NCBI GenBank assembly: GCA_963741095.1
Contig: CAVUGN010000005.1
Location: forward strand, 128,001-192,000
DNA from: an uncultured Candidatus Micrarchaeota archaeon
GTDB taxonomy: Archaea > Micrarchaeota > Micrarchaeia > Micrarchaeales > Micrarchaeaceae
Direction of reading: 5' to 3'
DNA: 64,000 bases
Below are positions 1,820 through 24,000 of this stretch, piece by piece. Within the stretch, counting starts at the first letter, position 1. Each line of letters begins with the position of its first letter. The position numbers were made by a program, and so were the translations under genes. The notes beneath the pieces are model-generated. The model did no database searches and was not told where the DNA came from. It saw only the letters and a list, made by a program, of their open reading frames with translations.

Positions 1820-2605
1820 ATGATGAAGTTCGACAGGACAACGAGGCTGAACATAAAGAGCCGGAGCACGCTGTCCGCCGGCTACCTGAACGGCAGGAAG
1901 TTCTTCATCAAAGAATACTCGATAAGGAAGGGCAAGGAAAAAGGCGACCTGCTGAAAGTGAGGTGCGAACAGTTGTGCTACCGCAATCTTGGCACCTCCC
2001 TGAACCTTCCAAGGCTGGCCGAAGCGGATTACAAGAACCGACGCCTCATCCTTGATTTCGTGAAGTTCAGGAACGCGGACGTGTCAAAGAAGACGATAGA
2101 CGACATCATCGGCTTCCAATCCAGGGTCATGAAGCACGTCGACGCATCATTCCTTCCGACTGTCACCTACGCCTATTACGAGACAACGCTCCGCCAGCTT
2201 GCCGCAGAACTGGGGGACAAGGAAATAACAAAACTATCGAAGAACATGTTCAGGCAATTCGAGAAAAACAGGCAGACCATCTCGGAGGCGGAAAAACACT
2301 TCTCGCACGGGGACATGCGCCTCGAAAACGTGAAATACCTGGGCAAAAAGCTGACCGTGATAGACCTGGAGCATTCGCGAAAGGACAACATGATGACTGA
2401 CTTGGCATGCCTGTACGTGGATCTCTACGGGAACAAAAAACTGTCCGATTACCTGATGGGCAGGATCACAGCGATAAAGGAGTTCGACAGGAACCTCTTC
2501 GAGCTCATGCTGCTCAGGAGGTGCATCGAAGTGCTCCACGCCCTGAAGGACAACAAGGATTCCCGCGCCTACAGAATGGCAAAAAGATTGATGATCATCA
2601 TTTAG
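1820..2605 (+). CDS. Aminoglycoside/choline phosphotransferase-like kinase
   Basis: FFIK N-lobe lysine, HGDMRLENV Brenner motif, IDLE (DxE) and DLA. ATG at 1820 is preferred over GTG at 1811. Confidence 0.75.
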   Translation: MMKFDRTTRLNIKSRSTLSAGYLNGRKFFIKEYSIRKGKEKGDLLKVRCEQLCYRNLGTSLNLPRLAEADYKNRRLILDFVKFRNADVSKKTIDDIIGFQSRVMKHVDASFLPTVTYAYYETTLRQLAAELGDKEITKLSKNMFRQFEKNRQTISEAEKHFSHGDMRLENVKYLGKKLTVIDLEHSRKDNMMTDLACLYVDLYGNKKLSDYLMGRITAIKEFDRNLFELMLLRRCIEVLHALKDNKDSRAYRMAKRLMIII

Positions 2606-2712
2606 TGCAAGAGAACGAGAAAAAGTTCGCGTCAAATAAGGTGCTCCTATCGTTCTAGCGTGAAGATTTACCTGTGCCTGAAGAATATTATTTAATACCA
2701 AATAATAAGTAT

Positions 2713-3123
2713 TCAGTTGAACTTATTTCTTTGCGACCATGCGTATATTGCGAAAATAATGACGATTGCTGTCCCTAGGATTATGGCAAAGACCTGCTTG
2801 AAAGAGTTGGTCGGATAAAAACCCGTTAGGATAAGAAGAATTCGCCCGAGAACATCGATGCCAAGAAGTATCATGGCAAGCACTAATTCTCGCTTCTTCA
2901 TTGTCAGAATGAGCAATCCACTGACCACGTAAGAAACGCCGATTGTGACAGATGCATAAGTGGCCACCGCCGTGGTGCTGGTAGAAACTACACTCAAAAA
3001 GTTTCCTGTGAATCCCGTTGTGATCTCAGCAAGACCAAAGAGGATCATAAGCACTGCGACTATTGTAATTCCCTTATGGCGTATCCTATTTTTCGCGTTC
3101 TCACTTGAGATACTCGTAAACAT
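2713..3123 (-). CDS. Small 4-TM membrane protein
   Basis: Four hydrophobic segments. The start at 3123 minimises overlap with the RelE-like gene. Confidence 0.6.
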   Translation of the reverse strand: MFTSISSENAKNRIRHKGITIVAVLMILFGLAEITTGFTGNFLSVVSTSTTAVATYASVTIGVSYVVSGLLILTMKKRELVLAMILLGIDVLGRILLILTGFYPTNSFKQVFAIILGTAIVIIFAIYAWSQRNKFN

Positions 3124-3355
3124 CTTCACGACTTTTAAACATGAGTAATAGAAGTTTGTCTTCTTTTTCCATAATCTGGTAAACAAGACGTTTGTTTTCG
3201 ATACGGATAGAGAACACCTCTTTTAGATGGTGCAGTTGTTTCCCTTTTTTGCCAGAATGCGCAATCTCCGATATTATTTCACCAAGTCTCTGTTTTTCCT
3301 TAGCGGTGAGCTTTTTTATATCCTTGTCAAATTCGCCGGTCTTTTCTACGTCCAT
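3101..3355 (-). CDS. relE: Type II toxin, RelE/ParE family
   Basis: 84 aa. F.KDIKKL...GKQL...FSIRI..KRLVY...REDVY pattern. Lies directly downstream of the antitoxin gene. Confidence 0.75.
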   Translation of the reverse strand: MDVEKTGEFDKDIKKLTAKEKQRLGEIISEIAHSGKKGKQLHHLKEVFSIRIENKRLVYQIMEKEDKLLLLMFKSREDVYEYLK

Positions 3356-3359
3356 GCAC

Positions 3360-3596
3360 TCAGGCGTATTGTTTTAGGATGTATTTGCTAGTCTTTTCCC
3401 TTCCAGAACGAATTTCACTTAACATTTTCTGTGTCGCCTTCTCGTAAAGTTCATCTTCGGTGAGTTTGTGAATTTGGTCGAACTCGAAAAGGGCAAGCCG
3501 TATCGCCTCTGTCTTGGTTTTGGCATAGCCATCCGCAAGCATTTTTTCTATCACTTCTGAAACGTAACCGCTCAGTTCTATGTTTATGTTACTCAC
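3360..3596 (-). CDS. Ribbon-helix-helix antitoxin (CopG/ParD-like)
   Basis: INIEL beta strand, then IEKMLADGYAKTKTEAIRLAL RHH helices. Lies 4 bp upstream of the toxin gene. Confidence 0.7.
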   Translation of the reverse strand: MSNINIELSGYVSEVIEKMLADGYAKTKTEAIRLALFEFDQIHKLTEDELYEKATQKMLSEIRSGREKTSKYILKQYA

Positions 3597-3643
3597 GATA
3601 TCACTTATAAGAATATTATAATGAAATATTATAAATATCTTTC

Positions 3644-3718
3644 TGCTCCCATCGGGATTTGAACCCGAGTTTTAAGGTTGAAAGCCTCATATCCTTGGCC
3701 AGGCTAGATGATGGGAGC
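3644..3718 (-). tRNA. tRNA-Glu(TTC)
   Basis: Reverse complement GCTCCCA..TAGCCTGGCCAAGGATATGAGG-CTTTCAA-CCTTA..GGTTCAAATCC..TGGGAGC-A folds as a cloverleaf with anticodon TTC. No encoded CCA. Confidence 0.95.
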
Positions 3719-3725
3719 CATTTGT

Positions 3726-4181
3726 TCAGAGCCATACGTTGTTGCAAAGCATTATTCCGTAGGTCGCGTAATTCACCATGTCCATTATGGTGTCTTCGAC
3801 CTTCTCATCCAAGACCAGCGCGGTGTTGCCCTCCTTGAGCAGGTTGACCGCCCTTGAGATCTTGTCGTTCAGCCGCACTATCAGGCCGACGACGCCGTAC
3901 TTGAGTATGTTGACCGAGCCGTAGTCCCTGTTCTTGGCTATGCCTATCTTGTATGAGGCGTCCAGCACGTCCTTGACCTCGTGCTTGTACCTGGTGCTCA
4001 GCAGCGAGAGGGCGCCGTTCCTGACACCGTAGAAGACCGCCGCGTTGTCCTTCGCGGGCTTGGTCCCGGCCATTATCTCCTTGAAGTACTTCTGCAGTGC
4101 GGCCTCTGCCTCCGCCAGCGTGTAGCCGTCCTTCGCGTCGACGCCGTCGTACAGAAACCTCTTGAAATTCTCGTCCCACAT
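3726..4181 (-). CDS. DUF1599 / nucleotide-modification-associated domain (Nmad1-like) protein
   Basis: KNRDYG...RLNDKISR...EKVEDTIMDMVNY motif set characteristic of DUF1599. Confidence 0.8.
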   Translation of the reverse strand: MWDENFKRFLYDGVDAKDGYTLAEAEAALQKYFKEIMAGTKPAKDNAAVFYGVRNGALSLLSTRYKHEVKDVLDASYKIGIAKNRDYGSVNILKYGVVGLIVRLNDKISRAVNLLKEGNTALVLDEKVEDTIMDMVNYATYGIMLCNNVWL

Positions 4182-9679: not shown

Positions 9680-9688
9680 GTCTGGTCA
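9680..9688 (+). repeat. Target-site duplication, left copy (GTCTGGTCA)
   Basis: An identical 9-mer lies at 15224-15232, abutting the right TIR. Confidence 0.9.
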
Positions 9689-9728
9689 GGTTCTGGTAAA
9701 TCTTAGGGTGGTAATTGACGGCTGGTAA
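9689..9728 (+). repeat. Left terminal inverted repeat (40 bp)
   Basis: GGTTCTGGTAAATCTTAGGGTGGTAATTGACGGCTGGTAA, the exact reverse complement of 15184-15223. Confidence 0.95.
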
Positions 9729-9738
9729 GCATCGGCTA

Positions 9739-12308
9739 TTACCAACTGTTCTCTTCGACGAGTTTTATCTGGTCTCGGTCTAACCCATAGAGCTTGTATA
9801 TCAGCTTATTTACCTCGTCTTTCATAGTCTCGCCATGATGAGAACTGCCCTTTGTTTCGATAATCTCTTTTACAAGCCTTACAACCTTGTCGTATTCTGG
9901 CTTGCCCTGATACTCGCATAGTGGTATCTTTGCCATATGGTATTTGTCGAACCGCATGGTTCTAATTGCTTTGGCATAAATGAATCTATACGCATACCAG
10001 TTAATCAGCTTTGAGTTGAGCAGGGCTACAACAAATTCGGGAGCTATCCCATCAAGGAATATGTTGCCTACGTTGTCTAAAGTTATCAGCCCCTTATCAT
10101 CTATCGTAGCCATCAGGATAATATGGTCTTTCGGATTCAATACATGGGCTACGATATTCTGAACAACCACCTTGGGCTTTTCTGTATATTGAACGGCCTT
10201 CTTTATCTCGTTGTAGTCAGATTTCGTTATGAAGTCCGTAACTTCCTTAATCTCGTATCTGCCTATGGATTTACCCCTCAGTATCGGTATTTCACCCGTT
10301 TCTTTTAGGTAGCTCTGTATAATCGCTCCCCTCTCTATGTTGGCGACTTTGGATAAGAACTCTCCCGTATTCAGAAGTTTTAGCCCTAATTTCAGTTCGT
10401 CCTCTGTAACGTCGTTTATGAAGTTCCCGAAAACGTCCACGAGCTTCTTGTCCACCGCTATCGGCTTTCTCTTTTCATCCAAGAACTCAATATGATACTG
10501 CTTGGCATTAGACCCTTTTTTCAAGATGATGATTACCTGTTCCAATAGAACGTCCTTGAAGGCTTTGCTTACGTCAACCAGCTTAATCAGGTCGTTCTTG
10601 ATTAGAAGCCTTGCACTAATCCATTTCTGGCTGTATATCAGGGGCTTAGGCACTATGAAACCCAAATATCCGTCCTTGTCCAACAGCAGATACGCCCTGT
10701 TAATGAACGCTATCGCAGTATCGGTATTGTTCTTGGTGGCTGGATAGTTCTTTAGCATATATTCTCTTTCGCTTGTATTAAGTTCAGCACCATACGGCGG
10801 ATTCCCTATTACTATGTTGAAGGACTTGACGTTTAATTCTTCGAGCCAATTATCCCAGTCAAAAGATTCTTTCGAGAGTTCCCTATCGTTTATTAGGCTG
10901 TTCCCAACCCTTACGTTATTTTTTAGTTCTGGCAATAGCGTAGTGTGGTCTGTTATCGTCTTTTGTTTCGTAGAGCCGAGTATCTTAAGGTAGATATTGA
11001 GTTTTGCTATTGATACTGCCCGTTCGTCTAAGTCCACGCCATAGATATTGTTCTTGATAAGTTCAAGTCTCTTAGAAGGCGAGAGCTGGCTGTAATTCTT
11101 AACCCTGTCATAATAGAACTTGTCGAACTCGGAGACTACTTTTATCAGGAAAGAACCCGAACCGCAAGCAGGGTCTAATACTTTGATTTTAGGTATGAAA
11201 TTATTTCGCCCCCCCTTTATACCATGTAATTCTTTTGCTATTGTATTCTCAACGATATAATCCACTATCGGCTTGGGTGTGTAGTATATCCCTTGCTCTT
11301 TTCGTGTTGACTTTCCGCCTATGAGTTTTCTGCCCTTTTGAATGTAGGCGAGATAGTTTTCGTAGATATTTCCCAGCACATCCACGTCTATCGCCGCAAA
11401 GTTGTATTCTATGTGCTCGCTCGGTTTCGATATACTGTCCAAAAGTTCTCGTATGACCTTATCAGGTATATCTATCGTCTCAAGTTCGGGTCTGCTGTCG
11501 GAAGCCCAAATATGTCAGTATCGTATTTCTGTCTGTATTTGGCAAAGACCACCTTACTGTTGTGTATATTTCCTTGTCGTCGTTTCGGTATATCTGCTCT
11601 AAAATTCTCTTTTCTCACTCTTCGGCCTCGACCTTTTTTATGAAGATTATCCTGTTTATTAACCCCTGTGTTAGCTCCTCTATTTGCTCTGGCGTTTTGT
11701 CTTTGGCTTCTGCTTGGAGAGACTGCTTATCTTTTCCCTGAATTTGTTTATGCTGTTAGCCAAGTCTGTGGTTATGTCTATTTGTTGAATCTTGTAATTG
11801 CTGACTTTCGCATATTTGTCCAAAGAGCCATCGAGTATGTTCTGGGCGTTGAGCAGTTGTAGCTTGTCCACCGAATAGGACAGATTCCCCGAAAGAAGGT
11901 CTATATTGCAGAACGGGTATATGCTATCCCTTGTTACATACCATCCTCGTATCCTTTTAAAGTCTGTTAGAATCGCCCAATTAACCGCCTTGCTGTAAGC
12001 ATAATCTTGAACCTGCTTATCGTATTTTCCGTTAGCAAGGTTCGCATCGCTCTTAAGTTTCTTTGCCTCAACTATCACTTTCGGGACGGGTTTAGGATAG
12101 CTGTAATCGGCACGTTTTATACTGCCTCTGTGTCTATTGGATTCTGTCTGTCTATCATGGGTTCCTCCCATTCCAAAACCTCTTTGAGTATCCTGTCAAC
12201 TAATTTAGAACGAGTATCGTCTTCGGATAGCGTATCATCCGAGTAGTCCTTCTTGTATGCGTCTATTATTTTGTTGAGCCTTAAGATAATTTCGTCCTTG
12301 TCTATCAT
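9739..12308 (-). pseudogene. Type IIG (Eco57I-like) fused restriction endonuclease / N6-adenine methyltransferase; frameshifted as assembled
   Basis: The pieces 12117-12308, 11680-12171 and 9739-11442 join into one protein. It has an N-terminal nuclease (DTR..RADY..VEAKK..QVQDY..AILTD), INRIIFIK, GIYYTP, DPACGSGSFL, IGNPPY and a TaqI-C-like target recognition domain. Confidence 0.85.
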
Positions 12309-12333
12309 AATTACAGTAGGAACTGATACTCTT

Positions 12334-13464
12334 TTAAGAGTTTATCTCAGGCTGTTCTGAAAGGGACTTTACAAGCAAGTCCCTCCAGTTCCCGCTCTCG
12401 TGTATCCCCGAAGCCTTAGCTGGCGTAGTTCCTAATGCCCCGTGAGGCTTGACAAAGTTGTAGTAGGTTTTGAAGTTCTTTGTAAAGTTCTCTGTTCCAG
12501 TATCCGTCTTAAAGCTCTTCATTACCTTGTCCCTCTGTCTGAACGTCCCGTGATACCTTTCCAGCTTGTTATTATTGCTCATTCCTTGCTTTAGGCTAAC
12601 GTAACGCTGGTGAGGATGCCTATTTGTGTAAGTCCAAAACTCATGCGTTATCGCCTTATTGTATGCGAAAGCCCCATCAGTAATTACAGTCTTGGCTTTG
12701 CTGTTAGCCGTCCGCTTTGCATCCTTGAATAGAGTCTGTGCGTCCTCTGTCGTCCTTGTCGGGCTGACATGGTTAGCGAGCAGAAAACGGGTATCGCTAT
12801 CGAGGCAGTTCCATACCCACTTATGCGAACCTTTTGTGATACATCTGCTCGTCAGCGTGCCATGTATCGCTAACGGCTGGGTGGTATTGCTTGACATACT
12901 GGTTTATTTTGTAAATGTATGCGGCCGCCGATTTCATTACTGAAACATGGGTTACCTTCAAGCTCATGAATTGCTTTAGGCTGTCCGCTATCGAGCGGTA
13001 GCTTACCCCCTTCATATATAAGTCCATAGCCATAACAACAGCGTCCAAGTCGCTCTTGATTTTCTGCAGAGGCTCTAATACGAACCTTGTTGCAGTTTAG
13101 GCATAGCCACCTCTGTTTCTTGCCCATAGTGGTCTTTCTTGTTCCGTCCTTTTGCAGTTTTGTAGAATTACAGTGAGGGCATGGCTGGTTTATGCTCGCT
13201 ATCTGATGTATCTCTGACGCCTTGACTTTGGCAGTAAGGTAGAACTTCAAGAGTATGATATGCTTGCAGAGATTACCTCTATGTTGTCCTCACAGTCGCA
13301 TACGCAAAAGCCGTTAGATTCTGTTCTACTTTGTGTTTTAACCCCTTAACGTTCTGTGATGGTATCCAATAAATCCCCTGTCCGTCCGATGCAGGCTTGA
13401 TACCTTCTTGTGCCATCTTTAGGCTTCTTTCCTTCCTCAATTCGTATGGTGTTTTATTCGTCAT
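12334..13464 (-). pseudogene. Transposase: SWIM finger + InsA-like Zn ribbon + HTH + IS6-type DDE core; frameshifted as assembled
   Basis: Read across frames: CDCEDN..CKH (SWIM), CPHC..KDG..QRWLCLNC, GVSYRSIAD (HTH), WHADE, VITDG, NNKLERYH and YYNFVKPHGAL. Confidence 0.85.
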
Positions 13465-13575
13465 ATAACCATCTTACTTGTATAGTATATTATTGTATGA
13501 GTATATATAAATACCTTTCGGGTAAGATACGATACCTTTATATACCTTAACCTAATATATTATAATGGTAATATT

Positions 13576-13716
13576 ATGGGTCTCGTAGAACTAAAAGTAA
13601 AGGGATATAGATGCGAGCGGTGCGGGCATGAGTGGGTTCCTAAAGGTTCAGAAGAACGACGAGTTTGCCCTAAGTGCAAAAGCCCTTACTGGAACAAACC
13701 AAGAAAGAAAAAGTAG
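13576..13716 (+). CDS. 46-aa zinc-finger micro-protein (not in the ORF track)
   Basis: MGLVELKVKGYRCERCGHEWVPKGSEERRVCPKCKSPYWNKPRKKK, with CxxCxHxW...CPxC. A TTTATATA box lies upstream. Confidence 0.8.
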   Translation: MGLVELKVKGYRCERCGHEWVPKGSEERRVCPKCKSPYWNKPRKKK

Positions 13717-13741
13717 GAATTATTACTTTATTACACACATA

Positions 13742-13769
13742 ATTACAAAAAGCTATATAGATTTGTAAT
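13742..13769. promoter_or_regulatory. Inverted repeat straddling a TATA-like box upstream of the RHH gene (candidate autoregulatory operator)
   Basis: ATTACAAA...CTATATAG...TTTGTAAT, about 30 bp upstream of ATG 13798. Confidence 0.5.
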
Positions 13770-13797
13770 AATTTTATAATCAAGAAAGGTAATAATT

Positions 13798-13944
13798 ATG
13801 ACAAAAAAAGAGACTGTGAGTATCAGGATGGACGCAGGAGTATGGAAAGAGGTAAAGATGCTTGCCGTTGAAAAAGATATGAAAATAAGCGACCTCGTAG
13901 AGACCTTACTTCTTAACTCTATTAAGCAGTTGAAAGGGAGGTAG
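13798..13944 (+). CDS. 48-aa ribbon-helix-helix regulator (not in the ORF track)
   Basis: MTKKETVSIRMDAGVWKEVKMLAVEKDMKISDLVETLL, a classic RHH pattern. Confidence 0.8.
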   Translation: MTKKETVSIRMDAGVWKEVKMLAVEKDMKISDLVETLLLNSIKQLKGR

Positions 13945-13986
13945 CCTTTTATACTTTGCTAACCATAACCTCAGCGGTAGGTCTCT

Positions 13987-15166
13987 ATGGAAAATGTAGA
14001 ATGGAAGTATCAGGATGGTGAGTCGCTGGCTCACATAAGTGAATTAACAGTAAATTCTAAGACAGTCTTATCGCCATTCCACTCAACAACGACAAGAGAG
14101 GATGCAACATACCTATCTGTTGTGGGGTCAAATAGGAGGGAACCTTCGATAAACATATCGGCAGAGTCCCTTAGTAAGACCACATTGGACCAAATAGGTC
14201 AGAGCATAGAATCTGCAAACGCTCTAATGGGTAGGTTGAACGAAAGGAAATCGCAATCGCACAAGGACATAAACCTGATTTATCCACGCATACCAAAGAA
14301 GTATGAGATAAAGAACGGACAGAAAAAGCAGTATAACTTTATCCCAAGAATAGACAACCTTCAGATTACTACGCTGGTAGATGTAGAACTTCAGTGTAAT
14401 GCTGATGCAATAATACCCGATACCGAGTTCCATAACGGAATTCGATCACTTCAAAGAGATATTGAGCAGAACCAACAGCCAAATTCAAACATTTAGCAAA
14501 AACAAGCCGATGATGGGATACATACCCAATATTGACGACAGGGCATTAGTAATAAAGATGATACAGGAATATCTGAAAAAGGATTATGATTGTAGGATAT
14601 TTGGCGTGGACTTTAGCGGTGCTTCTAACGCCCCGCTCCTTATTTCGACTGTCGTTGGAACAATTAGGGACGAATTGAAGATAAAAAAGAACAAAGAGAA
14701 CAACGAGAATTATTACCTTCATGTCTTTAACGCCTCAACAGCCAAAAAGTCAGAAAAGGATATATCCCCGATAAGCAACTTGCTTACCCAGCTCTACGGC
14801 GTGGACTCGGCGAGCGGGACTATCTGGGGCGGAGCGGGCGATAACCCACAGCCAGAGAATTCAAGATACATAGTTACTGAGGACTATGGTGCTTACAAGA
14901 AAAAGGCCATACACAAGATAACCTGCAAGTGCTATGTATGCTCTCACTATTCCCTTGACGAGATATATGACTCAGCCAACTACTTACAAAGGCTAAAGGT
15001 GCATACAGTATCAAAATATAGGACAGAATACACAGAGATAGGAGAGAAGATAAAGAACGACAAAGACCCGCTTGTGCCTTATGTCAATACCAAAGCCCAA
15101 ACCAAAACCGATGTTAGAAAGATAATGAACGACGTAAATGAGATTAAGGCGAGGACATCGGGGTAA
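13987..15166 (+). CDS. Divergent TGT (tRNA/DNA-guanine transglycosylase)-fold protein, with one frameshift near 14416
   Basis: N-terminal DGESLAHISEL...VLSP resembles TGT DG.AR.G.L...TP. Also LHVF, GVDS and a C-terminal CKCYVC...LKVH zinc site. No DSGG motif. Confidence 0.65.
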
Positions 15167-15183
15167 AATAAGACCGCCCCGAT

Positions 15184-15223
15184 TTACCAGCCGTCAATTA
15201 CCACCCTAAGATTTACCAGAACC
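15184..15223 (-). repeat. Right terminal inverted repeat (40 bp)
   Basis: TTACCAGCCGTCAATTACCACCCTAAGATTTACCAGAACC. Confidence 0.95.
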
Positions 15224-15232
15224 GTCTGGTCA
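15224..15232 (+). repeat. Target-site duplication, right copy (GTCTGGTCA)
   Basis: Identical to 9680-9688. It contains the stop codon of the 15230-15745 gene. Confidence 0.9.
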
Positions 15233-15745
15233 CTTCCGGATCACGCCCAGATTGCCCTCTTTTTCGACGTCAATCTTGGACCCTATTCCCCACGCGAATC
15301 CGATGAACATGGCGTTCTCCTTGTTCTGTATCCTGTGGCCGTTGTTTGCCGTTTCCTTTATCTCTTCGAGCTTGTTGACCAGGAGATCGACCGTGGCCTT
15401 GCTCGTCATTAACTCGATGGATTCCTGCGTTCCTGCCGTTTTTATGGCATAGAGGAAATCTGCGATATTGAAGGGCGTGCGCAACATCAGCGGATACAGG
15501 ACATGCGCGGCCTTTATCACATCGGGATTGCATGCCGTGTTTTGCATGTCCAGCACCTTTGCGGCCTGTATGTAGTCCAGGTTGAACCCCGTCGCCTGTT
15601 TCGGAACCACCTCTTTTATGCAGGAAAGGATATCCTTGCCGTTTGTCGCCTCCACCAGATCACCGTGCCACCCTCTATTTTTCGAGATATTTATGCCTAT
15701 GGTTGGATGACACTTGACGTACCCATGTTCGTCAAACGTTGCCAC
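15230..15745 (-). CDS. Hypothetical protein
   Basis: 171-aa ORF overlapping the thrC stop. Its own stop codon lies inside the TSD. Confidence 0.55.
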   Translation of the reverse strand: MATFDEHGYVKCHPTIGINISKNRGWHGDLVEATNGKDILSCIKEVVPKQATGFNLDYIQAAKVLDMQNTACNPDVIKAAHVLYPLMLRTPFNIADFLYAIKTAGTQESIELMTSKATVDLLVNKLEEIKETANNGHRIQNKENAMFIGFAWGIGSKIDVEKEGNLGVIRK

Positions 15746-18054: not shown

Positions 18055-20828
18055 TTATCTCTCTACTGCATCATCGTCGCTTCTCCTTCTCCTGCTGTAG
18101 GCCAAGCCTAGGGCTATTGCAACCGCTATGGCTATCCCGGAGCCCAGAAGCGGGATCAGGGCGTTTGAGCTGGAACCGCTCGTAGAAGTGGTCGAGCTGA
18201 TGGTTGTAGTTGTAGTGGATACCGTTGACGTTGAGGTCGAAGTGGCCTGCGTGGGCTGCTGTGCCGTGGTGGAGCCGGTCGTGCCCGTAGGGATGACGGC
18301 CTGCAGAACCACCGGCTGGCCGTTGATGCGCAGGGTTATCACGTCCTCGTGCATTATCGCCAGGTAGGATATGTTGAGCAGTTCGACATAATATCCGAAT
18401 CCGGTGTTGTTGTAGATCTCCACTGTTGCGTTCGGCGTCAGCACCAACGATTGTCCGTTTATCGTCAGGCCTGCCGAGGTTGGCGTTATGTAGTTGACCT
18501 GTATGTCGAAGATCACGTTCTCCACGTTCAGGCTCTCGGTGTTGTAGTCCGAGAAGTTCAGTATGGTGAAGCCCGTCTGGTTGCCGTTGGTGTAAGGTAC
18601 AACCGTCGGTTTGAATGCTCCGCCGCCTCCGCCCCCACCGCCGCCGCCAACGCCCGTTGGCACTATGGTGGTCGTCGTTGCAGGTGGATTGACCGTCACC
18701 TCTGTCGATGCACCGGTGTTGAGCATGTAGTTTGGCGAGGTGCCCGTGTCCGTCGCCTGTATTTCATAATAGACGCTTGTTGATGGTGTGTCAGTGCAGG
18801 TCACTATCCCGCTGCTGACCACGCAGTTCTGCGTAGATGCAGGGGCAAAGGTTGTGCCATCAGTTGATACCAATAATTGGTACGTTATCGTTCCGGTGCC
18901 GCCTGAAGCGGCGTTGGCCGTCACGGTCTCCGTCTGGCCGTCGGTTATCGGCGATGTTATCTGTATGCCTGAAGGCGCAATGAGCGCGTTGTTGACCGTG
19001 ACCTTTGTCGACGGGCCGGTGTTGAGCATGTAGTTGGGCGATGTTCCCGTGTCCGTGGCCTGTATTTCATAATATGTTCCAGTTGAGGGTGCATTTGTGC
19101 ATGTCACGGTCGCGCCGCTGACAACGCAGTTCTGCGTTGATGCAGGAGCGAAAGTGATGCCGTTGCTGGACACGAGTAATTGGTATGTTATGGGACCAGT
19201 GCCACCAGAGGCAGCGTTGGCAGTCACGGTTTCAGTCTGGCCCGAATCTATTGGCGAGGTTATCGTTATGCCAGAAGGCGCTATGAACGCACCGCTGACC
19301 GTTACGACGCCCGTGTTCGATTGCGCGTTTCCGACCGAATCTGTGACCGTGAGGGTCACAGTGCACATGACGGCCGAAGTGGGCGTGAACATGACTGAGT
19401 TGGTGGTGCTTGACAGTGACGAGCATGCAGGGTCTGAACCGCTGCCGCTCCAGGCGTACTTGACGTATGAAGATGAACCGCCGCTGACACCAGCGTGAAG
19501 CGTGATCGTCTGGCCCAGATCTATTGTAGGGTCCAGTATCACGACAACGAGCGGAGGATAAACGGTCACTTGTGACGAAGGTGCACTGGTTGTCGTTACC
19601 GCGTTGGATGCTGAATCTGTTGCGGTTATCTCGTAGATGTAGTTGCCCGCCGTAGTCGGCGAGTATGTGCATTTTACGGATGATCCTGAGAGCGCGCACG
19701 CCGCGCCGGTTGAGGCGTAGCCGCTGCCGGAATTTGCCAGCAGGCTGTACGTTACCGGTGCGCTTCCGCCCGTCGCAGCATTCGCGACGACGTTCTCGAT
19801 CTGGTTAGCATCTATCGGCGTGTTTGCCGAGGTTATAGAAGGTGTGCCTAGTGCAGGATTTGCGGTGACAGAAGCTGTTCTCTGCGTTGAAGTCGCGCCC
19901 AGCGAGTCCTTCACGATGATCCCGTAGGTCTCGGTGGTTGTCGACGCAACAGTAGGCACGGTTATAGTGCATGTCGGAGAAGTTGTAGAACATGAGCCAG
20001 TGCCTAGACCAGACCATGTGTAAGTGTAAGGCGATGTCCCGCCAGTCGGAGACGCAGTCAGTGTCAGTGCCTGCCCGCTGTCGGATGTCGAAGCGGATGC
20101 GGACAGCGTGACCGTCGGAGACGGTGCGATTGTAGTTGTCGTAGGAACGGTTGTTGTTGGTACTGTTGTTGAGACCGTTGAAGTTGTCGTGGTTGGAATC
20201 GTTGTGGTTGTCGATACAGTCGTGGGTATTGTAGTTGTCGGCACGGTCGTTGTCGGTACGGTTGTTGTCGATACAGTTGTCGAGACCGTTGAAGTTGTCG
20301 TGGTTGGAATCGTTGTGGTTGTCGATACAGTCGTGGGTATTGTAGTTGTCGGCACGGTCGTTGTCGGTACGGTCGTTGTAGGTACCGTTGTCGATGCGGT
20401 GGTTGTCGAAACCGTCGAGGTTGTCGTGGTTGACACGGTGGTGGTTATCCCGCAGTGAGTGGGCATTGGATCCTGTGTGCAGCTTGATTCAGTGCCGCCC
20501 GCACAGGTGCAGTGGTGGGATCCGCATTGCGGGCTTGTGCCGCTGCAGAACCAGTTCCAGCAATTCTCGTAGCTGTCGGCACCGTAGCAAACGACTATGG
20601 TTGTCGTGGGAGCCGTGGTTGTTGACGCCGTAGATGTTGTGGTTGAAGTCGTTGTGGTCGGATACCGTAGTGGAGATTGTCGTCGGCCACCGTGGTGGTC
20701 GTGGTTGAGCCTCTGCAGGCGTACGCTGCCCCCATGAACAGCGAGATGAAAACCAGGACAGACAGTACAAGCCTTAAGGGCCCTGCCGAGTGTGCATGCT
20801 CATCGAAGTTTCGCTTTGAGAAATTCAT
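18055..20828 (-). CDS. Surface glycoprotein: signal peptide, Thr-rich stalks, 8-Cys module, Ig/PKD-like domains, shared C-terminal domain and TM-RRRR tail; two frameshifts near 20660 and 20686
   Basis: The signal MNFSKR...LVLSVLVFISLFMGAAYA starts at 20828. The frame of the 18055-20466 ORF stays open to about 20660. Confidence 0.75.
20130..20440 (-). repeat. Thr-rich coding repeats including a 111-bp direct duplication
   Basis: GAGACCGTTGAAGTTGTCGTGGTTGGAATC... occurs at 20171 and 20282. It encodes TTTVP/TTTIP units. Confidence 0.8.
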
Positions 20829-21030
20829 CAAAATCCCGGAATATTTAGGACAGCCATGATGGCTGCATTTTCTTGCACTACGACTCTCATTCAGGAGATA
20901 CTTATGCGTTTGCACCACGTTCGCGGATCGCCGAACATCGAGTAGTGCCTGGCGGCATGCCGGGACTTGACTCCCTACAGCAGCCTAGGGGAGGTTGGGA
21001 TCGGATAACCGCGATGTTGTGGTGGAGCGG

Positions 21031-24000
21031 TTACCTTCTTCTCCTCCTGTTGCCCCTGGAATAGGCTAGGCCTATCGCTATTGCGATCGCAATCGCAACT
21101 CCGCTTCCTACCAGCGGTATGAGGGAATTGCTTGGCGTAGTGCTGCTCTGCTGCACCGTTGTGGTGGACAGCACCGTTGTGGGCAGCGTCGTCGTTGCAG
21201 TTGTAGTTGCCGTGGTCTGCACGGTCGTTGCGGGAACCTGCGTGGTTATGAACGGCCCGTTGGGCTGCCCCCATATCACCAGCGTCATCACGTCCTCGTA
21301 CGCTATCGGCAGGTACGCTATGCTCGTTATGTTCGCATAGTAGGTGTATCCCGCAGGGTCGTCAAGCTTGGTGACGTTGCCGAGCTGCAGCGTGTAGTTG
21401 TGTCCGTTTATCGTAACTCCCGCGCTCGTAGGCGTCAGGAAGTGCACGACAATGGTGAACGTCTTGTTGTTTATGACGACCTGCTGCGTCTCGTAGTCCG
21501 TCAGGTTGATTATCGACCAGCCGGTCTCGTTGTTGTTCGAGTACGACAGCACGGTCGGCTTGAACGTTCCGCCGCCCGCTCCGCCTTCCGCGCCTCGCCG
21601 GTCGAGCCGCTGTTGCTTCCTCCGCCTCCGCCGCCACCGTTGCCGCCACCGTTGCCGCCTGAGCCGCCACCCCCGCTGCCAGATGGTACGCTTGTTACGG
21701 TTATTGACGCGATTGCACTGTTAGCAGTTTCAGGTGATGCTGCCGAGTTGTCTGTGACTCCGACATCGTAGCTGAATGATCCGAGAGCGTTTGTCGTGAA
21801 CGTGCATGTGTTGCCCGTGCACCCCGTCATCACCAGCGCGTTGCCAGAAGTTGTGTTGAAGAAGGTATACGTGAATGGCGCTGTGCCTCTGCTGACGCTT
21901 GCGGTCAGCGTCTCGCTATCTCCAGTCACCGGGCTGGCTGCGCTAGGCGCTATTGATACACCAAGTGTGTCGCTAACAATCACTGTTGCTATGTTTGACA
22001 CCGACATGCCGTTGTTCGAGTCGGTGATCATGACGTTGTAGGTGAATGTTCCAAGCGAGTTGGCAGGCGCAGAGTATGTCGATGCTGTTGCTCCGGTTAT
22101 CGCATTTCCAGAGGTCATGTTGTACCACTGGAAGGCGTAGGTGCCAGAGCCTGGGTTGACAACCACAGTGCTAAGGGTGAATGTCTGACCCAAGTCAACA
22201 TCCACATTTGTAGGTATTGTCACCGCAGGCAGTGCATATACAATCATGGTGTTGCTTAGCGTCTCGCACCCATTCGCTCCGGTGCACGCTCCGCCTGGGT
22301 TGCTTGTGCTGTCCCTGACTTCCACATAAACGTTGTCAGGCCCAACGCCGCTTGACGTAGCAGTGAACACAGCATTACTCGATTGCGAGCTTGTTGGTCC
22401 GTTGAACTGCTGGAACGCAGTCACGCTGTTGCTGTTGACAACGATGAAGTTGTACGTGTACGGTGGAGTTCCGCCATGTATGCTTGCGGTCAGCGTCGAT
22501 AGCTGGCCCACATCGATGGAGTTAGGTATTGCCGCGAACAACGATCCAAGAGCTTCATTTACCTTTATCGTGCTCTGGCTCGTGATGAAAGCGTAGTTGG
22601 GTGTCGTGCCCTCATCTATTATCGCAGCATTGTAGGTGAATGAGCCAATAGCTCCAGTCAGGAAGGATAACCCTCCGCTGCCGCCTGGGCTCAATATGAC
22701 TGTGCTGATGCCCGTTGGAACAGGTGTTATGCCAGACATATTGATTAGCTGGACATTGAAGGGCCCAGTGCCCCCATTTACGGTCAGCTGGTACGTTTCT
22801 ATCTCGCCGGAGTCAAGCACTGACAGAATCGGCGTGAATGTTGCAGTCGGAGCCGGGTTGACCTGAACGTTTAACGAAGCTGCTTGAGTATGCGAAGCAG
22901 AGTCCGTAACGCTTACCGAATACGGTTCGGTAGTAGGTACACTCGTCGTAGGCGATACTGGGCACACGTCTGTCGTGCTTGCAGTAGTTGTATCGCACAC
23001 TGATGCACCAGCACCAGTCCAGGTGTAGGTGTAGCTAGGCGAGCCGCTAATCGCAGTGGCCGTCAGCGTCTCGGTCTGGCCAGAATCTATCGCAGGCGAT
23101 GAGCCCATAAGCGTGACTCCGAACCCTCCAACAGTCACCGTAGAGATTGTAGAGTTTACTATGTAAGGTACCGTTGTGCCCGTATCGGTCACCCGCATCT
23201 TAAAGGACCATGTTCCTTTGCTGTGCTCGGGGTGGTCACGAATGTGTAGAGGTTGCAGCTTGTAGCTCCGGCTATTGACAAGAATGTCGGGCTGCCTGGC
23301 TGCTCGGAGAACCACTGGCACGCAAAGTTGGCAGGGTTACTGCCTCCGGTCGTCGAGCCCGTTAGGATAGAGGAGTTGCCTCCGATGAGCTGTATTGGGC
23401 TGGCGCTCGAGAATGCCAACAGCTGTTGGTAGACAGTCACTCCCTCTTGGTTGATTGCGCTAGCCATCTCTGGCAGGGCGTTGGAACTGTCTGTTACGAA
23501 TACCTGGAACTCCCAGTCTCCTATGGCAGTTGAGGTGTCTGTCTGGAACAGCGTCTGGGTTATGACTGAGCTTGATGTTTGCAGGCTACCTGGGATCGTT
23601 GTGTATGTTAGGTTTGCCGGATCTTCATTTGCCCAGTAAGTGACATATGGCGCCGTGCCCCCCACCACTGAAGATGATTCGACCGAAAGCTGTCCCTGGT
23701 CGACCAGCGAGTGGCTTGATGTCGGCGGTTTGACTGCAAGCGGTTTGTTGACGTTCAGCGTTGAAGAGCTCGACGCAGTTTCAGCTGGAGTTCCAGCAGA
23801 GGCATCGGTCACTGTGACCGAGACAGAGTACCCACTATGCACAGTGGTTGACGTTACTTTGCACGTAGTATCGGATGTACCGCAGCCTGCTGTCTTGGTA
23901 AGGCCCGCTGGTACAGCCCAAGCGTAGGTGTACGGCATTGTGCCTTCAGTCGCTACTGCGGTGTAGGTGTATGACTGACCATTGTCAATGTTTATCGGGG

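Follow-up and report, generated by a model that had tools for sequence, protein, structure and literature searches.

A family with a predicted transglycosylase fold and no nucleophile aspartate, represented by a broken gene with a ribbon-helix-helix partner on a decayed transposon of a Micrarchaeota archaeon

The window analyzed in this study, a stretch of 64,000 nucleotides of contig CAVUGN010000005.1 from an uncultured Candidatus Micrarchaeota archaeon, contains a broken gene resembling tRNA-guanine transglycosylase (TGT) at positions 13987 to 15166. The analysis shows that this copy is a dead two-gene module, consisting of a ribbon-helix-helix (RHH) regulator and a TGT-fold protein, carried as cargo on a decayed transposon in a small DPANN-type genome. 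The family to which the protein belongs is a new variant inside the TGT superfamily, without a Pfam model of its own. We tentatively favor the view that its intact relatives act as a base-directed effector of a mobile conflict module, serving in defense or addiction.

The two open reading frames (ORFs) of the TGT-like gene, 13987-14496 and 14414-15166, lie on the forward strand in frames one base apart; a single gene has been divided here by the loss of 2 nt at about 14416. The C-terminal frame is open from 14414, and its first start codon at 14462 gives a 234-aa ORF (14462..15166). A word-index search with the 250-aa C-terminal frame as the query returned 19 proteins, most of them 389-408 aa long, none with a precomputed Pfam domain and all named ones 'hypothetical'. 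The best of these, P0001, is an intact 393-aa homologue 97% identical to the window protein and reads without interruption across the break point of the window (...NADAIIPPIPSSI... / ...CNADAIIPPIPSSI...). In an alignment with metagenome contig L006, which is 99% identical, 2 nt are missing from the window after 14416 (CCACCA in L006 vs CCCG in the window). Two extra bases were also present at the break in all three other public sequencing runs covering the site (X1, X2, and X5; depth only 2.3 in one of these contigs). Shares in the sequencing-run search were at most 0.20, and the frameshift was checked against the contigs of relatives. The earlier note on this DNA, made from the sequence alone, had joined the pieces into a protein of about 390 aa with a frameshift near 14416, which proved exact. 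The 2-nt lesion is particular to the genome of the window or to its assembly, and the TGT-like gene in the window is a pseudogene, a dead passenger on a dead transposon.

The joined protein has a TGT-like N-terminal hairpin, followed by LHVF (14717-14728), GVDSAS (14798-14815), CxCxxC (14924-14941), and the zinc-site histidine (15002-15004), whereas a DSG(G) motif is absent. These features agree with those listed in the earlier note. Family models respond poorly to the protein. The single sequence matched PF01702 below threshold (E 0.017, 14.6 bits vs a cut-off of 26.3), and the gathering cut-off was not reached by any of the 16 close members or of the 87 long family representatives scanned, the best score being 25.8 bits; seven of the 87 gave sub-threshold matches. 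The archaeal TGT (arcTGT) model TIGR00432 gave only E 1.1e-5, with its cut-off at 350 bits, and a phmmer search of the C-terminal piece against the PDB returned nothing significant.

Profile and structure comparisons were more informative. We used a 16-homologue profile (A1) and a 102-sequence alignment of the wider family (A2). In searches of PDB sequences, A1 found the arcTGT 1iq8 at E 0.0016, and A2 found it at E 8.6e-9 via the N-terminal hairpin and the zinc region, 1iq8 being the only PDB sequence with E < 0.07 for the A2 profile. An hhalign comparison of A2 with 24 diverse TGTs, both bacterial-type and archaeal, gave a probability of 97.3% (E 2.8e-11) over 315 columns and residues 1-374, whereas alignment of A1 or A2 with four Thermoplasmata arcTGTs was confined to the C-terminal third at low probability (E 0.0049). 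The AlphaFold2 model built on A2 had a predicted local distance difference test (pLDDT) score of 95.8 and a predicted template-modeling (TM) score of 0.94. Its best Foldseek matches were arcTGT, QTRT1, and bacterial TGT (E 5e-11 downward), and VIA-align superposed it on 1iq8 residues 7-360 with Z 26.1 and a root-mean-square deviation of 3.5 A over 320 residues at 16% identity. These results indicate that the window protein has a true TGT fold, with the barrel, the N-terminal hairpin, a three-stranded lid, and a C-terminal helical zinc subdomain, and they uphold the earlier proposal of a TGT fold with an altered catalytic set. When 1.84 billion cluster representatives were searched exhaustively with HMMER, 116 proteins reached E <= 1e-3, of which 43 reached 1e-10 and 18 reached 1e-30. 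The family comprises about 116 clusters at 50% identity, mostly archaeal, with members of 380-410 aa.

In the TGT mechanism, one aspartate is the nucleophile, the aspartate of the DSG motif is the general acid/base, and an aspartate on strand 4 reads the guanine edge. For QTRT1 and Cap10, the catalytic aspartate roles are supported in excerpts of a recent preprint (bioRxiv 10.1101/2025.04.06.647259). In the family described here, these positions are changed. Two profile-profile alignments, one with the 24 TGTs and one with the four Thermoplasmata arcTGTs, placed GVD274-S-A-S277 on G-x-D-x-F-D with S277 at the nucleophile, as the earlier note had read it. Across the 102 members this column holds Ser in 46, Gly in 45, Asn in 4, other residues in 7, and Asp in none. 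By hhalign, a 4-residue gap between P144 and P145 takes the place of the strand-4 'LD' aspartate, and the DSG aspartate aligns with S73, at low column confidence; in the 16 close members the latter column is S in 9, N in 4, D in 2, and K in 1. The zinc ligands C314, C316, C319, and H340 align with the TGT ligands and are invariant in 16/16 close members, whereas only 44-46 of the 102 members of the wider family have them.

Other residues are well conserved among the 102 sequences. Two are kept from TGTs, namely D274, the first Asp of GxD (93), and H246, the His of the HLFG strand in the four-arcTGT alignment (77). Newly conserved are D209 (83), N249 (82), R294 (81), Y301 (97), E348 (98), and K370 (100), as well as P30 (101) and P145 (96). 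Because the TGT aspartates have changed, the protein is no transglycosylase of the known covalent type; judged from these alignments, base swapping via a covalent ribosyl-enzyme intermediate would be impossible for it. The conserved polar set looks like a functional site. The guanine-binding aspartate appears to have been deleted, which weakens a reading specific to 7-deazaguanines.

The distribution of the gene is that of an accessory gene. The window genome, 1.08 Mb long in 11 contigs with a completeness of 94%, gave no match to PF01702. The same model was without a match in all 31 genomes searched from the order, of which 27 have a completeness of at least 90%, although all 14 control genomes scored. 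As a separate observation, archaeosine and queuosine transglycosylases seem to be missing entirely from this DPANN-type order. When 61 genomes of the order were searched for the TGT-like family, only that of the window had a member, and the 60 relatives had none. The closest named relative is from a Micrarchaeota metagenome-assembled genome, and the next ones are from Thermoplasmata. Among the five host genomes of loci L001-L005, a separate canonical arcTGT (~650 aa) was identified in four, which are all four Thermoplasmata, and no match to a canonical TGT was obtained in the Micrarchaeota hosts (G000 and G061). Among 401 genomes sampled from the phylum of the Thermoplasmata host, 30 carried a family member at E <= 1e-12, some of them with 2-4 divergent copies; at E <= 1e-5 there were 68 matches, the remaining weak ones mostly hitting the zinc region of ordinary arcTGTs. 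The TGT-like gene is therefore no tRNA housekeeping gene and is mobile and patchy, in line with the non-tRNA role that the earlier note had assigned to it. That note had also reported no queuosine or preQ0 genes in the window, and this holds; in the whole genome, QueC gave only a partial PP-loop match and no preQ0 pathway was found.

The constant neighbor of the TGT-like gene in its subfamily is a small RHH gene. In the window and in 17 of the 18 loci whose upstream sequence could be used, it immediately precedes the TGT-like gene on the same strand, abutting the start of that gene or ending within ~45 nt of it. These 17 loci represent about 11 distinct versions (L010, L011, L013, and L017 repeat L003, and L012 repeats L002); L008 and L015 were left out because their upstream sequence was too short, and the sole exception, L020, is a gene fragment without an RHH gene upstream. 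The position behind an RHH micro-ORF claimed in the earlier note is thus general in this subfamily. The proteins are 45-61 aa throughout (alignment A5) and share the pattern ...K-x-V/I-S-I-K/R...W-K-x-x-K...L-V-E.... Their Pfam and PDB sequence matches were all sub-threshold and all to RHH or CopG families. The AlphaFold model of the window protein (pLDDT 91.2) has an extended N-terminal strand and helices at 13-25 and 30-46, and its fold matches were Arc, CopG, PutA-RHH, and the DNA-binding domain of the CopA antitoxin (TM 0.7-0.86; probability 0.97-1.0; E 0.07-0.5, as expected for 48 residues). The fold occupies residues ~5-46 of 48, leaving no C-terminal toxin-neutralizing extension. The stretch between the Zn-ribbon ORF and the RHH gene contains an inverted repeat of 8 bp (13742-13749 / 13762-13769), a candidate operator, on either side of CTATATAG, a candidate TATA box about 40 nt ahead of the RHH start codon.

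A narrow hidden Markov model of the RHH protein matched none of the 29 distant-member loci (L029-L057), its sole match, L028, being the place of L002; the RHH partner is therefore specific to the subfamily of the window. A complex prediction of the TGT-like protein with two RHH copies scored 0.00 with controls not run, and carries no weight either way. The zinc-finger ORF further upstream, which the earlier note had counted as part of the arrangement, did not fare as well: among the loci it occurs only upstream in L006, the nearest relative, and it is outside the conserved module.

The module lies within a 5,535-bp transposon (9689-15223) with perfect 40-bp ends and a 9-bp target duplication (Table 1), which substantiates the earlier suggestion of mobility. 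The GC content, about 0.55 outside, drops to 0.38-0.45 between ~9500 and ~15200, and the 40-nt inverted repeat has only two copies in the genome. Three large genes of the transposon, encoding a Type IIG restriction-modification (R-M) enzyme, an IS6-like transposase, and the TGT-like protein, are all broken. The first two carry six further lesions, while the flanking host genes are intact. The Type IIG gene (PADLOC REase_MTase_IIG, 8.1e-46) retains an open methylase and specificity frame of 591 codons (9742-11514, reverse strand), but a stop-to-stop frame map of its N-terminal third shows at least three frame changes and one in-frame stop. Loss of the nuclease-side third with an open methylase frame is the usual route to an orphan methyltransferase. 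The transposase matched DDE_Tnp_IS240 (1.1e-12), NCBIfam IS6 (7e-17), and the IS1/IS1595 Zn domain (6.8e-8), and no second copy of it was found in the genome.

The target duplication holds the stop codon of ORF 15230-15745 on the reverse strand, so the transposon landed exactly at the 3' end of a host gene; the ORF has 171 aa and carries no annotation. An empty target site did not turn up: in 20 relatives the left flank matched at only 63-68%, inside the neighboring gene. In three other runs the right end of the element is joined to different flanks, which fits insertion at other sites elsewhere. The 40-nt inverted repeat was absent from all other loci, and no comparable inverted repeats bounding the module were found in L001, L004, L007, L009, L018, or L019.

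Table 1. Features of the transposon and its TGT-like module in the window
Feature	Position	Strand	Basis
Target-site duplication, left copy, 9 bp, GTCTGGTCA	9680..9688	.	Same 9 nt at 15224-15232
Left 40-bp terminal inverted repeat	9689..9728	+	40 nt, 100% complementary to 15184-15223
Type IIG R-M gene, methyltransferase and target-recognition part, intact	9739..11442	-	Eco57I 1.7e-29, N6_Mtase 8.2e-24, TaqI_C 1.3e-12 (Pfam)
Type IIG N-terminal third, decayed, MmeI_N-like nuclease	11483..12329	-	Frame map; MmeI_N E 4.6e-4
IS6-like transposase pseudogene (Zn finger, helix-turn-helix, DDE parts)	12337..13289	-	Three frames = 2 frameshifts
Zn-ribbon ORF, 46 aa, CxxC...CxxC	13576..13716	+	Sub-threshold Zn-ribbon matches only; lineage-specific
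Candidate operator/promoter of the RHH operon	13742..13769	+	Read from sequence: ATTACAAA and TTTGTAAT around CTATATAG
RHH protein, 48 aa	13798..13944	+	Conserved partner of the TGT-like gene; AlphaFold and fold matches
TGT-fold gene, N-terminal piece	13987..14496	+	169 aa; residues 1 to ~144 in frame, remainder out-of-frame read-through
TGT-fold gene, C-terminal piece	14414..15166	+	Residues ~145-393; carries LHVF, GVDSAS, CxCxxC...H
2-nt deletion splitting the TGT-fold gene	14415..14419	+	L006 alignment; 2 extra nt in run contigs X1, X2, X5
Right 40-bp terminal inverted repeat	15184..15223	-	Pairs with 9689-9728
Target-site duplication, right copy, 9 bp	15224..15232	.	Same 9 nt as 9680-9688

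Decay of the TGT-like gene is not restricted to the window. In L006 (396-1100), the nearest relative, with 99% identity across 235 codons, the copy is interrupted by TAA at codon 153, and R101, otherwise invariant, is changed to Leu (R101L). Since L006 bears lesions of its own, the gene is decaying independently in sister strains. The gene in L018 is split into two abutting ORFs. Damaged copies in the wider set are those of L038 and L046, both truncated, and of L057, which is interrupted by a TAG.

Neighborhoods of the relatives were scanned for 41 ORFs of L001-L005, 44 of 72 ORFs of the metagenome loci, and, for distant members, 73 of 135 neighboring ORFs in 29 loci, the longer ones being chosen. 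DDE transposases occur beside or near the module in L001, L002, L004, L009, L013, L018, and L019, and in L018 and L009 the transposase is just upstream of the RHH gene. DNA methyltransferases lie near the module in L001 and L009, an AAA-TIR protein was found in L019, a HerA/FtsK-like ATPase in L005, and DUF3800 in L015. A 120-aa HNH nuclease is encoded 36 nt downstream of the TGT-like gene in L007 (2363-2725) and L018 (4695-5057); the best family matches of this protein are the HNH domains of IscB and Cas9. The earlier note would have been refuted by a predicted structure other than a TGT barrel or by ordinary housekeeping homologues without ties to mobile or defense loci; the model is such a barrel, and the homologues lie in mobile or defense-type neighborhoods. 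Its statement that the gene is carried with a Type IIG enzyme is correct for the window, where both are cargo of the same transposon, but a functional link is not borne out. The pairing was repeated in no other locus, whether in L001-L005, the metagenome loci, or the distant loci, and therefore represents a shared ride, not a system.

In the distant loci, a recurring pair of ~190-aa proteins adjoins the TGT-like gene in varying orientation, with a C-terminal UPF0175 in 10 of the 29 loci and DUF3368, a PIN-type toxin tail, in 4 of the 29; further unannotated partners have the same size. The TGT-like, UPF0175, and DUF3368 genes may form a three-gene system (L029-L036, L041, L042, and L045; probably L049-L051 and L055). 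Three of the four UPF0175-type partners tested matched the C-terminal toxin-binding half of DarG weakly (E 2.5e-4 to 5.4e-3), a possible likeness that we regard only as a lead; the DarG-like region is the N-terminal part of these partners. In L043, BrxL (29-1483) is encoded on the same strand and ends 6 nt before the family member (1489-2652). Additional neighbors of distant members include DUF4258 with a winged-helix protein (L052 and L056), NOV_C, a Type I S subunit, a deaminase, and an OGG-like glycosylase.

Taken together, we propose the following working for the intact module. An RHH dimer would repress the operon's own promoter, and the 393-aa protein would be the working part. Its barrel, lid, and zinc subdomain, predicted to be retained, serve in TGTs to grip the nucleic acid and to turn a base out into the mouth of the barrel. 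The catalytic set has been exchanged, with Ser or Gly for the nucleophile Asp in most members, Ser or Asn for the DSG Asp in most of the subfamily, and the guanine-binding Asp apparently deleted, and a new polar set (D209, H246, N249, D274, R294, Y301, E348, and K370) is conserved. With DNA or tRNA as its substrate, the protein could then work hydrolytically, in the manner of a glycosylase, or it could be a tight binder that flips a base and cooperates with a neighboring nuclease. On this basis, a base-directed effector of a mobile conflict module is the interpretation we consider the most plausible for the intact TGT-fold relatives, while holding it with some reserve.

Several results weigh against this interpretation. 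No activity, substrate, or phenotype is on record for any family member. Scans of both gene pieces with PADLOC, PHROGs, and NCBIfam gave weak arcTGT matches at most, and the defense-library (PADLOC) models did not match the TGT-like pieces; the terms 'sensor/excisor' and 'anti-viral' used in the earlier note are to be read as hypotheses. In IMG/VR viral contigs, A1 gave 43 pattern matches, none of which was confirmed as a relative. The alignment at the DSG position is of low confidence, and the wider family has Asp there in 45/102 members. The new polar set is defined from the columns of the alignment. The neighbors are heterogeneous, with only the RHH gene constant in the subfamily, so that 'defense' is guilt by association, and transposases are common beside many accessory genes.

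The same evidence was weighed for other explanations. The protein could be a pseudoenzyme comparable to QTRT2, that is, a TGT fold without any catalysis that serves as a module for binding nucleic acid or a modified base and acts as a sensor, adaptor, or specificity subunit for neighboring effectors such as HNH or PIN proteins. In the subfamily, none of the three Asp positions that serve catalysis or base binding in TGTs is unchanged, and nuclease genes stand beside many members (HNH in L007 and L018, and the PIN-associated DUF3368), as this explanation would have it. Yet the conservation of the polar residues D274, D209, N249, and H246 is more typical of an active site than of a scaffold, and neither the lineage of the window nor Thermoplasmata shows a constant nuclease partner, so we consider a pseudoenzyme rather unlikely. 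A classical type II toxin-antitoxin pair, in which the RHH protein neutralizes a TGT-fold toxin (e.g., one causing tRNA or DNA base damage) by binding and also represses the operon, would account for a small RHH gene abutting or nearly overlapping a large gene downstream, for CopG and RHH antitoxins being the best sub-threshold RHH matches, and for the UPF0175, DUF3368, and weakly DarG-like partners in the wider family. In addition, both the window and L006 combine a broken large gene with an intact RHH gene, and in L018 the large gene is split and the RHH-like open frame upstream has only a TTG start. Nevertheless, lesions in an 8-fold longer gene are expected by chance, and the RHH proteins, at 45-61 aa, lack the C-terminal extension by which RHH antitoxins cover their toxin. 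An RHH protein that is little more than the bare DNA-binding fold argues against a classical neutralizing antitoxin, and we judge this explanation quite unlikely.

A DpdA-like DNA transglycosylase, which would place 7-deazaguanine or another base into element or host DNA as the modification half of an R-M-like system, is very improbable. TGT homologues do act in this way in Dpd systems and are reported in BREX-related loci in excerpts of one article (PMC12839542), a Type IIG R-M gene is on the same element, and DNA methylases are near L001 and L009. The complete absence of the nucleophile Asp from the family, the deleted guanine-binding Asp, the lack of a preQ0 pathway beyond the partial QueC match, and the lack of any PADLOC Dpd match all oppose it, and viral DpdA-type models are farther from the family model (best BFVD E 3e-5) than arcTGT in the PDB (5e-11). 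Finally, the gene might be an ordinary divergent tRNA arcTGT or ArcS, or the frameshift an assembly error in a gene that is active here, given that arcTGT is the closest solved fold and that no other TGT was found in the genome. We give this almost no credence: the gene lies inside a low-GC transposon and was not found in the 60 relatives searched, in an order that showed no TGT, the protein has no C1, C2, or PUA domains and no catalytic Asp, the Thermoplasmata carriers have a separate arcTGT, and the other two large genes of the element carry six lesions between intact host flanks.

Beyond the base-directed effector itself, a broader proposal is conceivable, although we regard it as doubtful: the family might form a new class of TGT-fold effectors that remove or trap DNA or tRNA bases by a mechanism without a covalent Asp, plugged into several mobile conflict systems. 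These would be the RHH operons on transposons, the UPF0175/PIN three-gene sets, the DUF4258 sets, the HNH cassettes, and the BrxL operon. If true, archaeal immunity and addiction would have turned repeatedly to base-flipping TIM barrels as weapons or sensors.

Two other parts of the window were conspicuous. A second low-GC stretch (0.42-0.44 vs ~0.55) at 2500-4000 surrounds tRNA-Glu (3644-3718) and may be an integrated element. Also, a few kb downstream, the reverse strand at 18055-23321 encodes two very large Thr/Ser-rich secreted or surface proteins (803 and 603 aa) in which domains are repeated and poly-Gly linkers occur.

For the window genome itself the finding is an ordinary one, a decayed transposon with three dead large genes. 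The family is of wider interest. TGT enzymes are the textbook route of 7-deazaguanines into tRNA, and a family with no nucleophile in any member must work differently. Its members are restricted to the accessory and mobile fraction of archaeal genomes, from which very few characterized conflict systems come, and open-access full-text word searches returned no account of a nucleophile-less TGT-fold family paired with an RHH gene. Because the intact proteins P0001 and P0008 are available, small, and confidently folded, and have one constant partner, the function is directly testable.

Among known systems, arcTGT (1iq8/1j2b) shares the N-terminal hairpin, the barrel, the three-stranded lid, GxD, the HLFG His, and CxCxxC...H with the window family. 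Unlike arcTGT, which has C1, C2, and PUA domains and ~580-650 aa, the window family is without these domains, has Ser for the nucleophile Asp and the DSG Asp and a deletion of the strand-4 Asp, and is mobile and patchy, coexisting with true arcTGT in Thermoplasmata. QTRT2, a non-catalytic subunit, and ArcS keep the TGT barrel and have lost the transglycosylase nucleophile, and the window family resembles both in these respects. QTRT2 pairs with catalytic QTRT1, and ArcS has a PUA domain and acts on preQ0-tRNA, whereas in the Micrarchaeota hosts G000 and G061 no canonical TGT was matched that could be a partner or supply preQ0-tRNA; the NCBIfam ArcS model did not match P0001.

DpdA has retained the catalytic aspartates, and its gene is associated with DpdB, DpdC, or preQ0 genes. 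Excerpts of published accounts describe it as a single-domain TGT homologue in mobile or defense settings outside tRNA metabolism (PMC12839542, PMC6884629, PMC10164549, PMC10516641), and to this extent it resembles the window family, which differs from it in having no nucleophile in any member and an RHH protein as its constant partner; no DpdB, DpdC, or preQ0 partners were found among the scanned neighbors in the window and its relatives. TGT homologues in immunity include DpdA and the BREX-related 'BRC' loci, as stated in excerpts of PMC12839542. In Cap10 of type IV CBASS (cyclic-oligonucleotide-based antiphage signaling system), the TGT-family barrel has been remodeled for a non-tRNA partner, according to excerpts of the preprint (bioRxiv 10.1101/2025.04.06.647259); D73/S74, D122, H226, and the catalytic D248 are preserved in Cap10, whereas its zinc site and tRNA surface are gone, and it is partnered by the QueC-like Cap9 and a CD-NTase. 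As far as these excerpts go, the likeness is that of a TGT-family barrel recruited to an immune system, and the pattern is the reverse one, as the window subfamily has no Cap9 or CD-NTase neighbor and has lost the aspartates while keeping the zinc site and lid. More recently, the entry of 7-deazaguanines has also been demonstrated for DNA (DpdA) and for a protein (Cap10), and the window family would be a fourth offshoot.

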